From Flavobacteriales bacterium (GTDB taxonomy: Bacteria; Bacteroidota; Bacteroidia; Flavobacteriales_F; PHOS-HE28), in the NCBI GenBank assembly GCA_041391785.1, contig JAWKNI010000005.1, positions 107,945 to 171,944 of the forward strand: 64,000 bases of DNA. The letters run 5' to 3'. The notes under the pieces are model-generated. The model was not told the DNA's origin. It was given only the letters and a program-made list of their open reading frames with translations, and made no database searches. The position numbers were made by a program, and so were the translations under genes. This document shows positions 3,088 through 64,000 of the stretch, in pieces (positions within the stretch are counted from its first letter, which is position 1; each line of letters opens with the position of its first letter).

Positions 3088-4488
3088 ATGCACAGCCCCA
3101 CACCGCTGAAAAGGTCCGCCCGCCGCGCGGCCCTGTTGCTGCCATTGCTCCTTCCGATGCCGGCACTGGCCCAAAGCACGCCGGCCCCGCTCACCGGTCT
3201 TTCCGTGGAGAGCCTTTTTCGCGGGCTCCTTGGAATGGCCTGCATCATCGCGATCGCATGGGTCTTCAGTGCCAAACGAAAGCACGTGGATTGGAAAGTG
3301 GTGGGCATCGGCCTGTTGTTCCAGCTGGTCCTCGCACTGGCCATCCTGTACGTTCCCTTCGTGCAGACGGGGTTCGAACTGGTCGGTAGGCTGTTCGTGA
3401 AGGTGCTGGACTTCACGCGCATCGGAAGCGAGTTCCTGTTCCGCGACCTGATGGATGTGAAGAGCTCGGGGTTCATCTTCGCCCTGCAGATCCTGCCCAC
3501 GATCATCTTCTTCAGCGCACTCACCAGTGTGCTGTTCTACCTGGGCATCATCCAAAAAGTGGTCTACGCCCTGGCCTGGGCCCTCAACCGTACCATGCGC
3601 CTCAGCGGTGCGGAAAGCCTCAGTACGGCAGGCAACATCTTCCTGGGTCAGACCGAGGCACCGCTGATGATCAAAGCCTACCTGGACAAGATGAATCGCT
3701 CCGAGATCTTCCTGGTGATGACCGCAGGCATGGCCACCGTGGCAGGCGGTGTACTGGCCGCTTATGTGAGCTTCCTGGGTGGTGACGACCCGGTGCAGCG
3801 CCTGTTCTTCGCCAAGCACCTGCTCACCGCCAGCGCGATGGCCGCACCGGGGGCCGTGGTGGTGGCCAAGGTGCTCTTCCCCCAGACCGAACCGATCGAG
3901 CAGAAGCTGGAAGTGAGCATGGATCGCGTTGGAAGCAACTTCCTGGATGCCATGAGCAATGGCACCACAGAGGGCTTGAAGCTGGCCGCGAACGTGGGCG
4001 CCATGCTGCTGGTGTTCTTCGCATTCATCGCGATGTTCAACTTCGTCTTCCTGCGGATCGGGAATGCGATCGGCATCAACGATTGGGTGGTGCAGGTCTC
4101 AGACGGGAATTTCCAAGGCTTATCCCTGGAATTCATCCTGGGCTACCTATTCGCCCCGCTGATGTGGCTGATCGGGGTGGCCACGGAGGACATCACGCTG
4201 ACCGGTCGGTTGCTGGGCGAAAAGATCATCGCCAGTGAATTCGTGGGATACGAAAGCCTGGCCACCTTGAAGGCCGAAGGGGCGTTCGCCTACCAACGGA
4301 GCATCGTCATGGCTACGTACATGCTTTGTGGCTTCGCGAATTTCGCCAGCATCGGTATCCAGATCGGGGGCATCGGCTCGCTGGCCCCATCCAAGCGTGC
4401 ATGGCTCAGCGAGTTCGGGTTCAGGGCATTGCTCGGGGGCACCCTGGCCTCGCTCCTGAGTGCCACCATTGTCGGCATGCTGGTGTGA
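3088..4488 (+). CDS. Concentrative nucleoside transporter, NupC/CNT family
   Basis: Motifs GFIFALQILPTIIFFSALTSVLFYLGIIQKVV and C-terminal GxANFASIGIQIGGIG typical of NupC/CNT. Confidence 0.85.
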   Translation: MHSPTPLKRSARRAALLLPLLLPMPALAQSTPAPLTGLSVESLFRGLLGMACIIAIAWVFSAKRKHVDWKVVGIGLLFQLVLALAILYVPFVQTGFELVGRLFVKVLDFTRIGSEFLFRDLMDVKSSGFIFALQILPTIIFFSALTSVLFYLGIIQKVVYALAWALNRTMRLSGAESLSTAGNIFLGQTEAPLMIKAYLDKMNRSEIFLVMTAGMATVAGGVLAAYVSFLGGDDPVQRLFFAKHLLTASAMAAPGAVVVAKVLFPQTEPIEQKLEVSMDRVGSNFLDAMSNGTTEGLKLAANVGAMLLVFFAFIAMFNFVFLRIGNAIGINDWVVQVSDGNFQGLSLEFILGYLFAPLMWLIGVATEDITLTGRLLGEKIIASEFVGYESLATLKAEGAFAYQRSIVMATYMLCGFANFASIGIQIGGIGSLAPSKRAWLSEFGFRALLGGTLASLLSATIVGMLV

Positions 4489-4494
4489 TCGGCA

Positions 4495-5070
4495 ATGCGC
4501 AAGGCGTTCCTCCTCCTTGCGACCGTTGCCGCTGTCCTCGCAGGTGCGCTCTTTTGGAAAAGGTCCGCGACCGGATCTTCACCAACGGAGGCCGGCGCTC
4601 CATTGGACAGTCTTGATGGCGTGGTCGTACGACACAACGATGGCTTCGGCCAGGTGCATGGTCGCAATGTGGTGGACGGATACAATGTGGGCCTTCGCTA
4701 CCAATGTGTCGAATTCGTGAAGCGGTACTATCTGGAGCGCTTCGGGCATCGGATGCCGAACAGTTACGGACATGCGCGTGACTTCTTCGACCGGACCATT
4801 GCGGATGGCGCCATGAACAGTGACAGAGGGCTCCTGCAATTCACCAATGGGAGTGCAGCCCCACCCAAGCGCGGCGACCTTATCGTATTGGACGGGTGGA
4901 AAGGGAACCGCTACGGGCACGTGGCGATCGTGAGTGCTGTGGAGGATGGTGAGGTGGAGGTGATCCAGCAGAACACGCGCAGCACACGGGCACATTACGA
5001 CCTGGACCTTGTCGCTGGAAAATGGCGGATCGATCATGACCGTATCCTCGGCTGGTTGCGCATTCCCTGA
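4495..5070 (+). CDS. Secreted CHAP-domain protein (Cys/His amidohydrolase/peptidase)
   Basis: Signal peptide; catalytic-type Cys in YQCVEFVKRYY and His in GHVAIVSAV with GDLIVLDGWKGN...; CHAP-like architecture. Confidence 0.65.
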   Translation: MRKAFLLLATVAAVLAGALFWKRSATGSSPTEAGAPLDSLDGVVVRHNDGFGQVHGRNVVDGYNVGLRYQCVEFVKRYYLERFGHRMPNSYGHARDFFDRTIADGAMNSDRGLLQFTNGSAAPPKRGDLIVLDGWKGNRYGHVAIVSAVEDGEVEVIQQNTRSTRAHYDLDLVAGKWRIDHDRILGWLRIP

Positions 5071-7390: not shown

Positions 7391-7896
7391 TCGTCTCAGC
7401 CATCGCCGCGGTCGCGGACAACGGTGTGATCGGCCGCGATGCCGACCTGCCTTGGAACCTGCCTGATGACATGCGGTACTTCCAACGCACTACGCGCGGC
7501 CACCACATCATCACCGGGCGCAAGAACTACGAGAGCATCCCCCTCAAATACAGGCCCCTGAAGGACAGGGTGAACCTGGTCGTGACCCGCAATGCCGCAT
7601 ACCAGGCACCGGGCGCCAAGGTGGTGGGGTCCCTCACGGAAGCGTTGGATGAGGCTCGTGCGGCCGGCGAGAAAGAGGTTTTCGTGATCGGTGGCGGTGA
7701 GATATTCGGCCAAGCCTTGCAGCATGATATCGTGGACCTGTTGTACCTGACCCTGGTGCATGCCGAAGTGCCCGGCGATGTTCATTTCCCGATCGTGGAC
7801 CCTGCGGATTGGAGCGAGCGGAGCCGCATCCATCATGAAGCGGATGACACACATGCATACCCCTTCAGCTTTGTGATCCTGGAACGCAGGCGTTGA
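7387..7896 (+). CDS. folA: Dihydrofolate reductase
   Basis: [36 protein letters not shown]...; ATG overlaps thyA TGA (ATGA). 169 aa. Confidence 0.9.
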
Positions 7897-12306: not shown

Positions 12307-14829
12307 ATGCACCTCGTCCATTTCCGCGCACGGCTTACCCGTGTCGCACTCCTCGCTTTCGCCCTTCACTTCGTACCGCTCCACACCACCGCCCAACGCC
12401 CGCCCGCACAACCCGATGCCGCCGAGATCCTGCACAAGATGCAGAAGCTCCAGGTGCTGGGCAGCGTGCTCTACATCGTGGCCCACCCCGATGACGAGAA
12501 CACCCGCCTGATCGCGTGGCTAGCCAACGGAAAGAAGGTGCGCACCGGCAACCTCAGCCTCACACGCGGCGATGGAGGACAGAATCTGATCGGACCCGAA
12601 CTCGGTGACGCACTGGGCATCATCCGTACGCAGGAGTTGCTGGAAGCACGACGCATCGATGGCGGCGAGCAGTTCTTCACCCGGGCGGTGGACTTCGGCT
12701 ACAGCAAGAGCGCCGAGGAAAGCTTCGAGAAATGGGGCAGGCAGGAAGTGTTGAGCGATGTGGTGCGTGTGATCCGCATGTTCCGGCCGGATATCATCAT
12801 CACCCGCTTCTCGCACATCCCCGGTGGCACGCACGGACACCATACCGCCAGCGCCATCCTCGCGCATGAGGCATTCGACCTGGCCGGTGACCCAAAGGCT
12901 TTTCCCGAACAATTCGAGGAGGGCCTTGAAGTGTGGCAACCGCGCCGCCTCTTCCACAACGGCAGCACCTGGTGGCGCAAGGACCTCGCGGACATTGTGA
13001 AGACCGACCCCGATTGGTTCGCGGTGGATGTGGGTGGCTACGACCCGCTGCTAGGACTGAGCTACACCGAGATCGCCGGGCGCAGCCGCAGCATGCACAA
13101 GAGCCAAGGCTTTGGCGCTGCCGAAACACGTGGCGAGCAACTCGAATACCTGCACTTCGAGAAAGGCGACCGACCGAAAGGCGATGACATTTTCGAGGGG
13201 ATCGATATGACGTGGGGGAGAGTGAAAGGGGGATTGGAATTCGCCAATATTATTTCGACTGCGATAGATGAATTCAACCCACTCTCACCTGAGACCTCAA
13301 TAAGACATTTGGTTAATGCTGATGGCGTATTGAGAGGCGGTCTTATGGGTCATGATCAATGGTTCGGCTACAAGGTCATTGATGTCCAGCAACTGGGCAA
13401 TGCATCTTCGGGCGTCTATGTTGAGGCGAATACAGACCAATCTTTCGTATCGGTCATTGACAGTGTATCAGTTGAATTGACTGCAACAAATCGCGGTAAC
13501 GCCGATCTGGTGGTATACGAGGTGGATGGAAATTGCAATGGCTGGAAGAACGAGGTTCCGTCCTTCGTCAGAGGTGTCTGGTCGGAATCCCTGATGTGCA
13601 CGATCCGTTCGATGAATGCCCCATATTGGCTTGAACATCCACATTCCACCCTCTACACCATACCCAATGTAAAGGCCATCGGCTCTCCTGTTCGAAATGC
13701 AACCCATCATTTTCGAATGAGCTTAGGATACAATGAGTTGGCCTTCACGGAGTATCCCATTTTGATGCACAAATGGGTTGACCGCGTCGATGGCGAACGC
13801 ACCCGTCCGGTCTACATCACGCCTGTGGCATCAATCATTCCTAAGACCAACATCCTGATCGCACGCGGTGGCACCCAGACCATCACCGTGGAAGTGGAAG
13901 CGCTCACCGACAGCTTGACCGGTCAGCTCGAAATGAAGCTTCCACTGGGCTGGGTTGAAGTCATGGAACCAAATCCTGTGAACATACCAAGGCGGAACGA
14001 CCGACAGTCGTTCACGTTCAAGGTGATGCCCTCAACTCATGCCACCAGGGGCCCGGCACGATTCGAGTTCAGCGGTTCCAAGGGTAAGGCGGACCGGACA
14101 CTGCACGAGATCGACTACCCGCACATCATGCCGCAGGTGTACTACACGCCCGCCGAGGTGCAGCTGATCCCGCTGGATGTGAAGGTGAACGCGGAACGCG
14201 TAGGCTACATCAAGGGCGCCGGTGATGATGTGCCGCAAGCGATCGAACGCCTCGGTGTCACCGTGGACATGATCGACCCCGCGACCGCCACCTTGGAGAG
14301 TCTTGCAAAGTACGATGCGATCGTGGTCGGCATACGCGCCTACAACACCGAGAAGGCGATGGCGCAGTTCAATCCCGTGCTGATGAAGTACGTGGAGAAC
14401 GGCGGCACCGTTGTGGCCCAGTACAACACGCTGAGCCGCGACATGATGGTGGAGGCGAACAAGATCGGTCCTTACCCCTTCGAACTGACCCGCAACCGCG
14501 TGACCGTGGAGGAAGCGTCACCGACCTTCCTCGATCCGAAACATCCCTTGTTGAACACACCGAACAAGATCACACTGGCCGACTTCGAGGGTTGGGTGCA
14601 GGAACGCGGTCTCTACTTCGTGGGTGAACGCGATCCGAAATACACCGCGCTTATCAGCTGGAACGATCCGGGCGAAGACCCGCTGGACGGTGCCTTGATC
14701 ACCTGCGACCACGGCAAAGGGCGGTATGTGTACACGGGCATCAGCTTCTTCCGGGAGTTGCCGGCCGGGGTACCGGGGGCGTATCGGCTGTGGGCGAACC
14801 TTATCTCTCGGAAGGAGGAAGGGAAGTAG
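12307..14829 (+). CDS. PIG-L/LmbE family deacetylase fused to ThuA-like (class I glutamine-amidotransferase-like) C-terminal domain, secreted
   Basis: VLYIVAHPDDENTRLIAWLA...LTRGDGGQNLIGPE LmbE motif; C-terminal YDAIVVGIRAYNT...NGGTVVAQYNT ThuA-like. Contains low-GC in-frame segment ~13200-13860. Confidence 0.8.
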   Translation: MHLVHFRARLTRVALLAFALHFVPLHTTAQRPPAQPDAAEILHKMQKLQVLGSVLYIVAHPDDENTRLIAWLANGKKVRTGNLSLTRGDGGQNLIGPELGDALGIIRTQELLEARRIDGGEQFFTRAVDFGYSKSAEESFEKWGRQEVLSDVVRVIRMFRPDIIITRFSHIPGGTHGHHTASAILAHEAFDLAGDPKAFPEQFEEGLEVWQPRRLFHNGSTWWRKDLADIVKTDPDWFAVDVGGYDPLLGLSYTEIAGRSRSMHKSQGFGAAETRGEQLEYLHFEKGDRPKGDDIFEGIDMTWGRVKGGLEFANIISTAIDEFNPLSPETSIRHLVNADGVLRGGLMGHDQWFGYKVIDVQQLGNASSGVYVEANTDQSFVSVIDSVSVELTATNRGNADLVVYEVDGNCNGWKNEVPSFVRGVWSESLMCTIRSMNAPYWLEHPHSTLYTIPNVKAIGSPVRNATHHFRMSLGYNELAFTEYPILMHKWVDRVDGERTRPVYITPVASIIPKTNILIARGGTQTITVEVEALTDSLTGQLEMKLPLGWVEVMEPNPVNIPRRNDRQSFTFKVMPSTHATRGPARFEFSGSKGKADRTLHEIDYPHIMPQVYYTPAEVQLIPLDVKVNAERVGYIKGAGDDVPQAIERLGVTVDMIDPATATLESLAKYDAIVVGIRAYNTEKAMAQFNPVLMKYVENGGTVVAQYNTLSRDMMVEANKIGPYPFELTRNRVTVEEASPTFLDPKHPLLNTPNKITLADFEGWVQERGLYFVGERDPKYTALISWNDPGEDPLDGALITCDHGKGRYVYTGISFFRELPAGVPGAYRLWANLISRKEEGK

Positions 14830-14840
14830 GAAGAATGTTC

Positions 14841-14863
14841 AAGACTCAAGTCACAAGTCACAA
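14841..14863 (+). repeat. Left terminal inverted repeat of 4HB element (aagactcaagtcacaagtcacaa)
   Basis: 21/23 nt identical to reverse complement of 15421-15444; third direct copy at 15272-15295. Confidence 0.55.
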
Positions 14864-14907
14864 TTAGGAAGGGTTCAAGAGCGTGTGACCTTAGGCAACG
14901 AGACGCG

Positions 14908-15318
14908 ATGAACGAACAGCGGAAATACGATCTCGAAGAAAGAACCACGGTGTTCGGGTCGGCTATCATTCGTTTTGTGGACCGGTTGCCCAATACCGTG
15001 GCTGGCCGGCACATGGGTGGGCAGTTGATCCGCTGCGGAACTGCGCCGGCTTTTCATTATGGTGAATCGCAAAGCGCGGAATCGCCAAAGGATTTCATCC
15101 ACAAGATCCGGATCGCGCACAAGGAGCTGAAGGAAAGCCGATCGAATGTCCGCATGCTGAAAGGAGCGGAACTACTTCCAGCAACCGACGAGGGCATGAA
15201 CTGGCTGCTCAACGAACTCGAAGAATTGATCAAGATCTTCGGAAAGATCCTCGCCACTGCGAAGAAGAACCAGACTCAAGACCCAAGTCACAAGTCTCAA
15301 GGCTCAAGACCCATGTGA
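14908..15318 (+). CDS. Four-helix-bundle protein (23S rRNA intervening-sequence protein family, TIGR02436-like)
   Basis: YDLEERTTVFGSAIIRFVDRLPNT...AGRHMGGQLIRCGTAPAFHYGESQSAESPKDFIHKIRIAHKELKESRSNVRML matches the 4HB/23S_rRNA_IVP family. Confidence 0.8.
   Translation: MNEQRKYDLEERTTVFGSAIIRFVDRLPNTVAGRHMGGQLIRCGTAPAFHYGESQSAESPKDFIHKIRIAHKELKESRSNVRMLKGAELLPATDEGMNWLLNELEELIKIFGKILATAKKNQTQDPSHKSQGSRPM
15272..15295 (+). repeat. Internal direct copy of the same motif inside the 3' end of the 4HB gene
   Basis: gactcaagacccaagtcacaagtc; encodes the odd C-terminal tail ...QTQDPSHKSQGSRPM. Confidence 0.5.
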
Positions 15319-15420
15319 ATGCACCTCAGTATTCTACTTCCATTTGTCCTTACAATTCAGTCTTCACATGCACGCGATCATCACTGCTCGATCGGGGGTA
15401 CACCTATTCAGTAGTTGGCA

Positions 15421-15444
15421 CTTGTGTCTTGTAACTTGAGTCTT
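15421..15444 (-). repeat. Right terminal inverted repeat of 4HB element
   Basis: cttgtgtcttgtaacttgagtctt = reverse complement aagactcaagttacaagacacaag. Confidence 0.55.
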
Positions 15445-15453
15445 TGAGTTCCC

Positions 15454-17190
15454 ATGCATTGGCTCGACTGGCTCATCCTACTCGGTACCCTCGGCTTCAT
15501 CGTCGGCTACGGGGTATGGAAGACGCGTGCATCGCACACCAGCGACAGCTTCCTGCGCGGCGGTACCGATAACAAATGGTGGGCCGTCGGACTGAGCGTG
15601 ATGGCCACGCAGGCCAGTGCGATCACCTTCCTCAGCACGCCAGGCCAGGGCTTTCTGGATGGTATGGGCTTTGTGCAGTTCTACTTCGGACTGCCACTGG
15701 CCATGCTGGTGATCGGCTTCGTGTTCATCCCGCTCTACTACAAGTGGAAGGTGTACACGGCCTACGAGTTCATCGGCAAGCGCTTCGATGGGCGCACGCG
15801 GCTGCTTACGGCCGGTCTCTTCCTGGTACAGCGCAGCCTGGCCGCAGGCATCACCATCTACGCGCCCAGCATCATCCTGAGCAAGGTGCTGCACTGGCCG
15901 CTCAGCTGGACTTGCGCGTTCATCGGTGCGCTGGTGATCATCTATACCACCACCGGTGGGGCCCGTGCCGTGGGCGTGACCCACAAGCAGCAGATGGCCG
16001 TGATGTTCCTTGGGATCTTCGCCGCCTTCGGTCTCACGGTCCACTACCTGGGTGATCACGCCTCCTTTGGCGAAAGCCTGGCCCTTGCCGGAGCACTGGG
16101 CAAGATGAACATCGTGGACACCTCCTGGGACCCCTCCACCAAGTACACGCTGTGGAGCGGCCTGATCGGTGGTTTCTTCCTTCAGCTTTCCTACTTCGGG
16201 ACGGACCAGAGCCAGGTGCAGCGCTACCTCGGCGGACAGAATGTAGCGCAGGCGCGGCAGGGGCTCTGGATGAACGCGCTGCTGAAGATCCCCATGCAGT
16301 TCTTCATCCTGCTCACCGGTGTGCTGGTGTTCGTGTTCTACTTGTTCAATGCCTCGCCGGTGCATTGGAACGCGGCCAATGTGGAGGCGATGGCGACATC
16401 ACCGGTCTCTCCGGAACTGGCCGAGCTGCGTAAGATGCACGCGGAGAACCAGACACTGTTGGAGGAACGCTCCATGGCCTGGGTGAAGGCCCGCAGGTCC
16501 GGCGATGCGGCAGCGGAAGAGCAGGCCAAGGCCGCACTGGAAGAGCGCCTGACCACCGACAAGGCGCTCCGGGAGGAGACGACCGCATTGCTGCGCAACG
16601 AATTTCCCGACCGCGAGGCGAACGATAAGGATTACATCTTCATCAGTTACGTGATGGACCACCTGCCGGTCGGCATCGTGGGCCTGCTGCTGGCCATGAT
16701 CTTCAGCGCGGGCATGAGCAGCACGAGTGCCGAATTGAGCGCACTGGCAACGACCAGCGTGGTGGATGTGGTCCGGAAGGAACGTAACGACGGTCAACAG
16801 GTCCTGGCGACACGCCGCGCCACAGCACTTTTCGGGGTGATGGCACTGGCCTTCGCCGCGATCTTCTCCCTCTTCGAGAACCTGATCCAGGCCGTGAACA
16901 TCCTCGGCTCGTTGTTCTATGGCACCATCCTGGGCATCTTCCTGGTGGCCTTTTTCCTACGCTGGGTGCAGGGCACGGCGGTGTTCGTGGCTGCGCTGAT
17001 CGCCCAGTGCCTCATTCTTGTCCATTTTGGCTTGGACCACTGGAACGTACTGGCGACCGAACTGCCGGACGGTACGATCCGCGATCCGATCGCGATCGCC
17101 TTCCTGTGGTACAACCTGATCGCACCGGCCATCGTGGTGGGGATCGCCATCCTGGCCCAGGCCGTTCTTCCCGGCCCGAGGCACGCGTGA
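15454..17190 (+). CDS. Sodium:solute symporter (SSS family)
   Basis: ~13 TM helices; SSF-family features (N-terminal GG..RxxxxxxxF-like region, large hydrophilic insertion near residue 300-400). Confidence 0.8.
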   Translation: MHWLDWLILLGTLGFIVGYGVWKTRASHTSDSFLRGGTDNKWWAVGLSVMATQASAITFLSTPGQGFLDGMGFVQFYFGLPLAMLVIGFVFIPLYYKWKVYTAYEFIGKRFDGRTRLLTAGLFLVQRSLAAGITIYAPSIILSKVLHWPLSWTCAFIGALVIIYTTTGGARAVGVTHKQQMAVMFLGIFAAFGLTVHYLGDHASFGESLALAGALGKMNIVDTSWDPSTKYTLWSGLIGGFFLQLSYFGTDQSQVQRYLGGQNVAQARQGLWMNALLKIPMQFFILLTGVLVFVFYLFNASPVHWNAANVEAMATSPVSPELAELRKMHAENQTLLEERSMAWVKARRSGDAAAEEQAKAALEERLTTDKALREETTALLRNEFPDREANDKDYIFISYVMDHLPVGIVGLLLAMIFSAGMSSTSAELSALATTSVVDVVRKERNDGQQVLATRRATALFGVMALAFAAIFSLFENLIQAVNILGSLFYGTILGIFLVAFFLRWVQGTAVFVAALIAQCLILVHFGLDHWNVLATELPDGTIRDPIAIAFLWYNLIAPAIVVGIAILAQAVLPGPRHA

Positions 17191-63814: not shown

Positions 63815-63870
63815 CCACGTGGGAGTGTGCGCCCGCCCGGATGCACATGATCACGTGACCACTTGACCAC

Positions 63871-64000
63871 ATGAGAGTTGAGATCATCACCCCGGACCAG
63901 GAGCTCTTCAAGGGCGAGGCCAGCTTCGTATCCGTGCCCGGCGTGGACGGCAGCATGGGCTTCCTGAACGACCATGCCCCGCTGATCACCGTACTGAAGG
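63871..64000 (+). CDS. atpC: F0F1 ATP synthase subunit epsilon, 5' portion (truncated by window end)
   Basis: ATG 63871: MRVEIITPDQELFKGEASFVSVPGVDGSMGFLNDHAPLITVLK matches AtpC N-terminus; follows atpD. Confidence 0.75.
   Translation, partial: MRVEIITPDQELFKGEASFVSVPGVDGSMGFLNDHAPLITVLK

Follow-up and report, generated by a model that had tools for sequence, protein, structure and literature searches.

The intervening sequences (IVSs) in the 23S ribosomal RNA (rRNA) genes of Leptospira and Coxiella burnetii are the closest described systems to the element reported here. The Coxiella IVS has a 28-bp terminal stem that is cut by RNase III, and two to three tandem copies of GACAGAT stand just before its open reading frame (ORF) of the S23p family; the authors of that study cite the old idea that such elements were once mobile and that the ORF gave them a mobility function (PMC4990558). 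Here we describe a 604-bp unit that carries a gene of the same family outside rRNA. It lies between a PIG-L deacetylase gene and a sodium:solute symporter (SSF) gene on contig JAWKNI010000005.1 of a Flavobacteriales bacterium, in a stretch of 64,000 nucleotides (64 kb) that was analysed as a whole and is called the window below. A first-pass annotation of this DNA had taken the unit for an insertion resembling a miniature inverted-repeat transposable element (MITE). Our analysis leads to a different reading, to which we give a probability of about 60%: the unit is an IVS-type four-helix-bundle (4HB) cassette outside rRNA, which is exchangeable by recombination and not MITE-like, and which would depend on read-through transcription and RNase III.

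Other known repeats also bear comparison. In REPIN-RAYT systems, short palindromes are dispersed between genes and one gene is flanked by inverted copies of the repeat. Both this gene and the gene-less repeats are inherited mostly vertically at fixed sites, without target-site duplications. Rickettsia palindromic elements (RPEs) are palindromes that lie in frame inside essential protein genes. Tandem heptamers are represented by the short tandemly repeated repetitive (STRR) sequences of cyanobacteria and by the GGGAATC arrays of Xanthomonas campestris. Rehm et al. counted 186 of the latter, about 70 of them as inverted pairs, and noted the lack of any detailed literature on heptameric repeats (PMC4692102).

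The 4HB family and the ORFs of IVSs were known before this work, and the family-wide tie of 4HB genes to heptamer arrays may be new. A general association of the two was not found in the literature searched, which left out most subscription journals. The tie joins two puzzles, namely the role and origin of the ORFs in 23S rRNA IVSs, open since the early 1990s, and the over-representation of heptameric tandem repeats in the intergenic DNA of many bacteria.

A 4HB gene enclosed by phased heptamer arrays

All positions below are those of the window unless another locus is named. The unit fills the gap between two genes that lie outside the cassette. The upstream one (12307–14829, + strand) encodes a PIG-L/LmbE-family deacetylase of 840 aa, recognized by its ORF, by Pfam PF02585 and by its orthologues, and the downstream one (15454–17190, + strand) encodes an SSF protein of 578 aa, recognized by its ORF and Pfam. 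The PIG-L stop codon is 10 nt from the unit and the unit is 9 nt from the SSF ATG. In alignments to orthologous loci, homology ends at this stop codon (14829) and restarts at this ATG (15454); the exact fit of the unit into the gap, as claimed in the first-pass annotation, was confirmed. The 4HB gene itself (14908–15318, + strand) encodes 136 aa, of which residues 1–121 form the core and residues 122–136 are read from a heptamer array. PIG-L, 4HB and SSF genes thus share one strand, and no second 4HB gene is present in the window. The G+C content of the unit is about 0.48–0.57 vs about 0.58–0.65 in the flanks.

Two inverted arms of 23 nt (14841–14863 and 15422–15444) bracket the gene and are complementary at 21 of 23 positions (91%). 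Allowing up to three mismatches, the 23-mer has four matches in the window, all within the unit, and none in 100 shuffles. A third, direct copy (15271–15300) overlaps the last 15 codons of the ORF and encodes its tail (QTQDPSHKSQGSRPM). Both the bracketing repeats and the third copy had been noticed in the first-pass annotation and are upheld. Its interpretation of the repeat as terminal inverted repeats holds only for the inverted arms; the repeat is a tandem, phased array of the heptamer CAAGNCN rather than a single 23-mer, and it also forms gene-less hairpins elsewhere (see below). The pattern CAAGNCNCAAGNCNCAAG has eight matches in the window, all in the unit, where 0.03 are expected. A period-7 scan of the 64 kb detected only the two + arrays (14840–14864 and 15270–15315), the − arm (15415–15444) being too degenerate for the threshold of the scan. 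No gene-less copies of the arrays were found in the window beyond those at the 4HB gene.

In the inverted repeat that brackets the gene, the left arm is formed by the 5′ array (14840–14864, + strand; CAAGACT CAAGTCA CAAGTCA CAAT), which ends 43 nt before the ATG of the ORF. It doubles as the left arm of an upstream palindromic element of about 95 nt, aligning with the left arms of hairpins in three related loci (L001, L005 and L006) and with those of gene-less hairpins. The alignment to relatives identifies 14865–14907 (+ strand) as the remnant loop and decayed right arm of this element; about 45 nt are missing here relative to the same three loci (window ...GAGCGTGTGACCTTAGGCAACGAGAC... opposite L001 ...AGCGTAGCCGCCCTTTACCTTGACACTTGAGTCTTGTGTCTTGTGAATTGAGTCTT), and the segment is at the same time the 5′ leader for the 4HB gene. 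The internal array of about six units (15270–15315, + strand) closes the ORF at its 3′ end and doubles as left arm of a downstream palindromic element, an arrangement found again in L006 and L020. It is followed by a degenerate first right arm, TGTCCTTACAATTCAGTCTT (15345–15364, − strand), which is 70% identical to 15425–15444 and is the counterpart of the first of two consecutive − arms downstream of the L006 gene (6436–6466 and 6473–6504 of that locus). The 3′ array (15415–15444, − strand) is the right arm and is able to pair with either 14840–14864 or 15270–15315.

The minimum-free-energy fold of 14826–15460 pairs 14839–14863 with 15421–15444 and so encloses the whole ORF. By itself, 15270–15315 pairs with 15415–15444 at −52.5 kcal/mol (z = −2.6). 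An Rfam scan of 14700–15600 gave no family match, and a scan for sigma-70 promoters and terminators gave nothing useful, its consensus being ill-suited to Bacteroidota. A Pfam scan of neighbouring ORFs found no transposase, integrase or reverse transcriptase within about 9 kb.

The 4HB protein and its relation to 23S rRNA intervening sequences

The protein passes the curated cut-offs of both Pfam PF05635 (34.9 bits, cut-off 33.8) and TIGR02436, "four helix bundle protein" (59 bits, cut-off 24), which bears out its first-pass assignment to the IVS-type 4HB genes. It matches PDB entry 2RLD in sequence (E = 2.7e-6). In the AlphaFold model of the monomer (predicted local distance difference test, pLDDT, 90), helices are predicted at residues 9–24, 31–55, 60–87 and 95–124. 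Low confidence is confined to about 12 C-terminal residues, with a pLDDT of 56–65 in the tail. The best Foldseek matches of the model are the S23-family structures 2RLD and 2GSC, both with a TM-score of 0.86 (normalized by target length) and root-mean-square deviations (rmsd) of 1.7–1.9. The solved homologues crystallize with five chains per entry, 2RLD among them.

Weaker matches are to Avd chains of diversity-generating retroelements (DGRs), with a TM-score of 0.73 (same normalization) and an rmsd of 2.8 for 8UB7_E. PF05635 proteins are described as resembling Avd, with a homologous 4HB fold (PMC10053308). Could the unit then be a remnant or accessory of a DGR and its protein an Avd? We consider this extremely unlikely: a reverse transcriptase and a pair of template and variable repeats are both absent from the surrounding 9 kb or so and from every orthologous locus, and the best matches, in sequence as in structure, are the free-standing 2RLD and 2GSC and not Avd. 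A DGR accessory at the window locus is therefore refuted.

Within the cassette type of the window (type A, see below), dN/dS, the ratio of nonsynonymous to synonymous divergence, is 0.04–0.06 for the 4HB protein, and synonymous sites are saturated even against the closest relatives (dS > 1.2). The protein is under strong purifying selection. These values show that the copy in the window is old and functional and no recent arrival.

In its architecture the unit matches the 23S rRNA IVSs that bear an ORF. In Leptospira and Coxiella burnetii as well, an ORF of the family S23p/PF05635 is enclosed by complementary termini forming a stem of about 25–28 bp (a predicted stem in the window), tandem heptamers stand 5′ of the ORF (GACAGAT in Coxiella), the element lies in sense orientation in a host transcription unit, and it has long been suspected of being selfish or mobile (PMC4990558). 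The sizes are also alike, 428–444 nt there and 604 nt in the window. The IVSs differ in sitting in helix 9, 25 or 45 of the rRNA, whereas the window unit sits between protein-coding genes; the Coxiella ORF is reported to be decaying, whereas the 4HB gene of the window is conserved by selection; and here the arms are complete arrays of 4–6 units on both sides, with gene-less copies in related genomes. In short, a gene kept by selection sits within palindromic elements, the arms of which consist of phased 7-nt units, about five per array.

Replacement and loss of whole cassettes at the PIG-L/SSF site

No identical copy of the window protein is on record, but homologues 72–94% identical to it exist. 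All those with a readable context (loci L001–L005, L006/L007 and L020) directly follow the PIG-L orthologue, share its strand and are surrounded by CAAGNCN arrays. Six more loci were found by starting from PIG-L orthologues (L129, L130, L131, L132, L155 and L156). In all, eleven orthologous loci were compared, the window itself being included in this and all other counts of orthologous loci. Five have the cassette type of the window (type A; 4HB identity to the window protein 74–91%), five have a 4HB protein 47–50% identical to it, and one has no gene. The 4HB gene is thus conserved at the PIG-L/SSF site in most relatives (10 of 11 loci).

Each type of gene comes with its own heptamer. L129 and L130 (type B, 47–50% identity) have AGAACAG/GTAGAAT heptamers, while L131 (type B2), L155 and L156 have a third 4HB variant with GAATGTA heptamers. 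In L132, the gap holds no gene; its 82 nt form a hairpin with four GTGAATG-type units before the loop and four CATTCAC-type units after it, which folds at −38 kcal/mol (z = −5.9); an empty site of the kind considered in the first-pass annotation does exist. In type A loci, the 4HB gene stands between two complete palindromes, the upstream one being incomplete in the window. For the flanking hairpins of relatives, folding energies lie between −38 and −46 kcal/mol and z values between −5.9 and −8.0, and the fold of L131, like that of the window, closes the ORF with its outer arrays (z = −2.7).

The identities of the flanking genes do not follow the pattern of 4HB identity among the orthologous loci. 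Two trees, one calculated from the conserved N-terminal region of PIG-L and one from that of SSF, both group the window with the type B hosts L129 and L130. The trees place the type A locus L006 beside the empty locus L132 (SSF identity 97%) and the type B2 locus L131 (95%). L129 had been considered the closest relative for its 82% PIG-L identity and was rejected as such, because this value comes partly from a shared variant of the hypervariable middle segment of PIG-L; the incongruence of cassette type with the flanks held on the conserved N-terminal parts. Cassette type is decoupled from the flanking genes. Since cassette types are intermixed on the flank trees, whole cassettes have been replaced repeatedly and lost on at least one occasion. 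Over longer times, the gene and its own heptamer type are replaced or lost together, and loss leaves a bare hairpin.

L156 (GCA_016712535.1) holds two distant 4HB genes 2.7 kb apart, each with a heptamer of its own (GCCAATG or GAATGTA). The second of these genes (2041–2394 of that locus, − strand) lies between the DUF2911 and PIG-L genes, is bracketed by GCCAATG/CATTGGC arrays and has the strand opposite to the gene at the PIG-L site. Its product is 19–42% identical to the others compared. The gap between DUF2911 and PIG-L holds no gene in the window and in most of the other orthologous loci read. Short heptamer arrays were seen in this gap in some loci, for example at 3414–3477 of L132 and 2206–2224 of L001.

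Several further observations concern the sequence of these loci. The 4HB protein P0016 matches the type B2 protein of L131 over residues 1–51 with one difference, and its remainder, including the heptamer-encoded tail QDSIHKSQVSRLK, matches type A relatives such as P0013. This chimeric look suggests recombination between cassette types. In the window, a segment inside PIG-L (13230–13765) has a G+C content of 0.45–0.52 vs about 0.61 around it, does not align at the DNA level to most orthologues and is common only to L129. L129 and L130 are 98.8% identical elsewhere and diverge or fail to align over 4414–4962 (PIG-L) and 7449–7684 (SSF). Judged from these alignments, the PIG-L/SSF locus resembles a mosaic produced by recombination. 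At its 3′ terminus, the PIG-L ORF of the window has a 12-nt tandem duplication (14810–14833; GGAAGGAGGAAG, two copies), which adds an RKEEGK tail relative to the relatives. Downstream of the 4HB gene in L005 (6426–6510), the contig ends within a − array of more than 11 units (TTGTGTC and related), probably an assembly break caused by the repeat.

Gene-less palindromes in related genomes

The exact 18-mer CAAGACTCAAGTCACAAG was found in 41 genome contigs, in 36 of which it is part of an array of at least four units; about 17 matches are expected by chance in the 596 Gb searched on both strands. The contigs belong mostly to metagenome-assembled genomes (MAGs) of Flavobacteriales and other Bacteroidota, and several MAGs have three to four separate loci. 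JADJOG01, JAXLVG01 and DAORNP01, for example, have gene-less copies on three to four contigs each. The matches in five non-Bacteroidota contigs (L008, L009, L017, L018 and L038) have three units only and were set aside as probably due to chance. Copies of the motif outside the unit, which the first-pass annotation left to be looked for, therefore form a dispersed multi-copy repeat in related Flavobacteriales MAGs.

A 4HB gene is present in only three of these 8-kb loci, in all three at the PIG-L site. The other loci are hairpins of about 95 nt, composed of a + array, a loop and a − array, and typically located between a stop codon and the next ATG. They align to the hairpins around type A 4HB genes, including the order of unit variants, with a mean column identity of 71%, and this alignment shows the arms of the cassette to be, by sequence, homologous to the dispersed palindromes. 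The folds of gene-less hairpins have z values of −6.5 to −8.0, and orthologous positions in different MAGs retain such hairpins, as in L016, L025 and L035. In L021 (6682–6760), L039 (6105–6255) and L044 (1235–1313), a CAAGNCN hairpin lies in frame in dnaE, between the DNA_pol3_alpha NTPase and finger domains, and adds about 30–70 residues (for example ...ELVGKTQVTSLKAQDTRADSDQLDAYDLNIESCDFREAV...). These hairpins, which come from related MAGs and not from the window, recall RPEs. RPEs, however, lack the heptamer periodicity and are not linked to a protein gene.

The ends of the elements are conserved (AAGACTCAAGTCACAAG...CTTGTGA(A/C)TTGAGTCTT). No target-site duplications were found at about 40 element ends; in the window, the flanks read ...gttc/AAGAC...GTCTT/tgag..., with slashes at the boundaries.

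These results bear on the first-pass proposal that the unit is a MITE-like, non-autonomous transposable element with 23-bp terminal inverted repeats, inserted between PIG-L and SSF and moved by a transposase acting in trans. Several of its expectations agree with the data. The inverted arms do exist, the unit exactly occupies the space between the two genes and has a lower G+C content than its flanks, the site is empty in L132, an extra cassette stands between DUF2911 and PIG-L in L156 alone, and related MAGs hold multiple copies of the arm sequence, whose ends are conserved. The model is nevertheless largely refuted and we regard it as very improbable. No copy has a target-site duplication, and the arms are phased arrays of variable length without fixed termini. 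The unit is neither non-coding nor recent, since its gene encodes a protein under strong purifying selection and dS is saturated; this gene occupies the same site in nearly all orthologous loci, and no transposase lies nearby. Only the gene-less hairpins are multi-copy, the window having a single 4HB gene. Also against the model, two distant 4HB homologues (P0099 and P0081, 48% identical) each occur in one genomic context only, across 24 and 13 contigs, so that identical 4HB genes did not turn up with different flanks. What stands of the broader idea of a mobile or selfish element is that the unit looks selfish: it is dispensable and exchangeable, and its arms are multi-copy. It bears no sign of transposition.

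In Flavobacteriales MAGs, arrays of other heptamers directly adjoin CAAGNCN arrays, namely CTGCCAA, CCGTCAA, GGCTCAA and CATTCGC (about 6380–6450 of L015, about 5440–5540 of L048, 5706–5782 of L019 and about 1950–1990 of L011). From these adjoining families it follows that Flavobacteriales MAGs hold several unit types, many ending in CAA.

Heptamer arrays around 4HB genes in other lineages

A scan of metagenomes with a 4HB alignment gave 80 loci whose proteins are 41–52% identical to the window protein, 71 of them with sufficient flanks. An array of period 7, 14 or 21 lies within 300 nt of the gene in 59 of these 71 loci. Counted gap by gap, arrays are present in 59 of 84 gaps that adjoin a 4HB gene vs 14 of 61 other gaps, a few of which actually adjoin a 4HB gene too (Fisher p = 2e-8). 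This comparison replaced a naive one of array density near to and far from the gene, whose 10-fold enrichment was dropped because the far sequence is mostly coding. A bracketing inverted match with a score of at least 18 was found in 29 of 71 loci, vs 6 of 71 in a cross-locus control and none of 71 in shuffles, and in 13 loci the upstream and downstream arrays have direct orientation. Thus heptamer arrays around the 4HB gene, most often inverted and bracketing it, are a family-wide trait.

Upstream arms stand a median of 31 nt from the start codon and downstream arms a median of 21 nt from the stop codon, and the mode of array length is 37–39 nt, or about 5.4 units. Within arrays, about four of the seven unit positions do not vary, unlike the remaining ones; uniform decay is rejected at p = 3e-7. 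The heptamers differ by lineage (GAACATC, GAATATC, AAATTGC, AACCTTG and others), and where two loci share a unit, their 4HB proteins are on average 73% identical, vs about 53% where they do not. Co-orientation of the 4HB gene with both its neighbours was seen in 35 of 42 loci, vs about 50% expected.

The gene-in-hairpin design spans Bacteroidota, Cyanobacteriota and many uncultured lineages. In the cyanobacterial plasmids pNFSY05 of Nostoc flagelliforme and plasmid2 of Aulosira laxa, four TTCAAAA units stand upstream of the gene and four to five TTTTGAA units directly after its stop codon. In plasmid p1 of Planktothrix agardhii, AATCGTA/AATCCCC arrays lie upstream and TACGATT arrays downstream. 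According to the supplementary table of Rehm et al. (PMC4692102), GGGAATC array #15 of Xanthomonas campestris overlaps the start codon of XCC0516, and XCC0516 is the 4HB protein of PDB 2GSC. STRR and GGGAATC arrays resemble the arrays described here in being intergenic tandem 7-nt units, often convergent inverted pairs that are capable of forming stem-loops. Their literature differs in treating them as simple sequence repeats or G-quadruplex formers, with no link to 4HB genes.

A plainer explanation would be coincidence, in which the hairpins are generic intergenic repeats acting as terminators, insulators or mRNA stabilizers, and the 4HB gene is an ordinary resident between two of them. Heptameric repeats are indeed over-represented in the intergenic regions of several bacteria (PMC4692102), arrays occur in a proportion of the other gaps of contigs with a 4HB gene and at many loci of Flavobacteriales MAGs without one, and gene-less hairpins such as those of L016, L025 and L035 are conserved at orthologous sites. 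We still hold this explanation to be unlikely. Arrays occupy 70% of the gaps adjoining a 4HB gene vs about 20% of the others, and in the window period-7 arrays stand only at the 4HB gene. The association spans phyla with unrelated unit sequences, the two 4HB genes of one genome (L156) have different unit types, arrays and gene are replaced together, and the in-frame hairpin in dnaE cannot be a terminator.

Some of the 4HB loci are located in notable gene neighbourhoods. In L136 (2344–3097), a 4HB cassette flanked on either side by GAATAxx arrays lies between the genes for the N-terminal and C-terminal parts of cytochrome b, within a Rieske/cytochrome bc operon whose genes all have one strand; eight further contigs (L137–L144) belong with it, and the arrangement is identical in many samples. 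In L135, the Planktothrix agardhii plasmid p1 mentioned above, the 4HB gene (13309–13668) lies between DISARM drmD and an MmeI-type restriction-modification gene. A passage of a CRISPR survey names "23S rRNA IVP" among the domains tied to adaptation modules (PMC10910872). A link of 4HB cassettes to defence islands is possible.

A proposed mechanism and its rivals

For the IVS-type cassette that we favour, the following course of events can be envisaged. The cassette would have no promoter of its own and would be transcribed by read-through from PIG-L, as we infer from the co-orientation of the genes, the 10 nt to the PIG-L stop and the 9 nt to the SSF ATG. In the transcript, the arms would pair into a stem of about 25 bp, formed either by the 5′ array with the 3′ array or by the tail array with the 3′ array. 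RNase III might then cleave this stem, as it does in rRNA IVSs, and release the 4HB mRNA from its neighbours. The 4HB protein may recognize the phased arrays, which is suggested by the five-chain crystals of its homologues and by its DGR relative Avd, part of an RNA-protein complex. Exchange between genomes would most likely take place by homologous recombination in or near the flanks and not by transposition.

A number of points weigh against this reading. The fold of the whole unit is no better than that of shuffles (z = −0.8), and the upstream palindromic element of the window is partly decayed, with most of its right arm lost. Mismatches in the arms show no excess of the G:U type (42) over the A:C type (47), so that hairpins at the DNA level or a common origin of the arms would fit equally well. 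Arrays occur in about a fifth of the other intergenic gaps of the same contigs, and the statistics on gaps and orientation rest on crude ORF-based gene calling. The binding of an array by a pentamer is a conjecture drawn from the five chains of the solved homologues and the mode of array length. Finally, the exchange of cassettes may be plain allelic replacement at a recombination-prone locus, the middle segment of PIG-L being hypervariable.

A related alternative starts from the palindromes. In a repeat-and-partner system comparable to REPIN-RAYT or TRAP, the palindromes would be self-propagating or actively maintained, and the 4HB protein, as their dedicated trans-acting partner, would bind them, protect them or help to copy them, its gene being housed in a copy of its own repeat. 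The 4HB gene is flanked by palindromes of about 95 nt that occur elsewhere without the gene and with the same order of unit variants, scattered over the same MAGs and also found in frame inside dnaE. The heptamer type co-varies with the 4HB type even inside one genome, about five units is the preferred array length, and the constraint on about four of seven unit positions, the five chains per solved entry and the Avd-like fold would also suit a protein that reads an array; Xanthomonas campestris has its 186 GGGAATC arrays together with a 4HB gene adjoining one of them. On the other hand, co-variation of unit and protein is expected under shared descent as well, the position-specific variation could be explained by alternating unit variants (period 14 or 21), and the window has no gene-less copies. 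The comparison with REPIN-RAYT, in which dispersed palindromes and a gene between inverted copies are likewise combined, applies to the related MAGs, while in the window copies occur at the 4HB gene only. It also differs in that REPIN-RAYT has a Y1/HUH transposase, whereas here the protein is a 4HB fold of about 120 aa without known catalytic activity, in which no HUH or other nuclease motif was seen, though no search aimed at one was made, and in that the repeat arms are phased heptamer arrays. We think this alternative doubtful.

A wider form of the idea is offered tentatively, as a possibility. 4HB proteins and heptamer palindromes might make up a phylum-spanning repeat-and-partner system, in which an oligomer reads its own array of about five units. 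Genome-wide intergenic heptamers (cyanobacterial STRR, Xanthomonas GGGAATC and Flavobacteriales CAAGNCN) would be gene-less derivatives or targets of such systems, and the 23S rRNA IVS would be the special case of a cassette that landed in an rRNA hairpin loop.

The heptamer type changes along with the gene, and gene-less hairpins stay where the gene is absent. Either the 4HB protein may read its own phased array, or the arrays may be sites at which RNase III processes host transcripts that carry the gene along. This hypothesis is approachable with proteins of solved structure, XCC0516 and BT_0352.

Another short repeat in the window

A period-8 tandem array of about 3.9 copies, CACATGAC, is located at 63844–63874 of the window and is unrelated to the heptamers.

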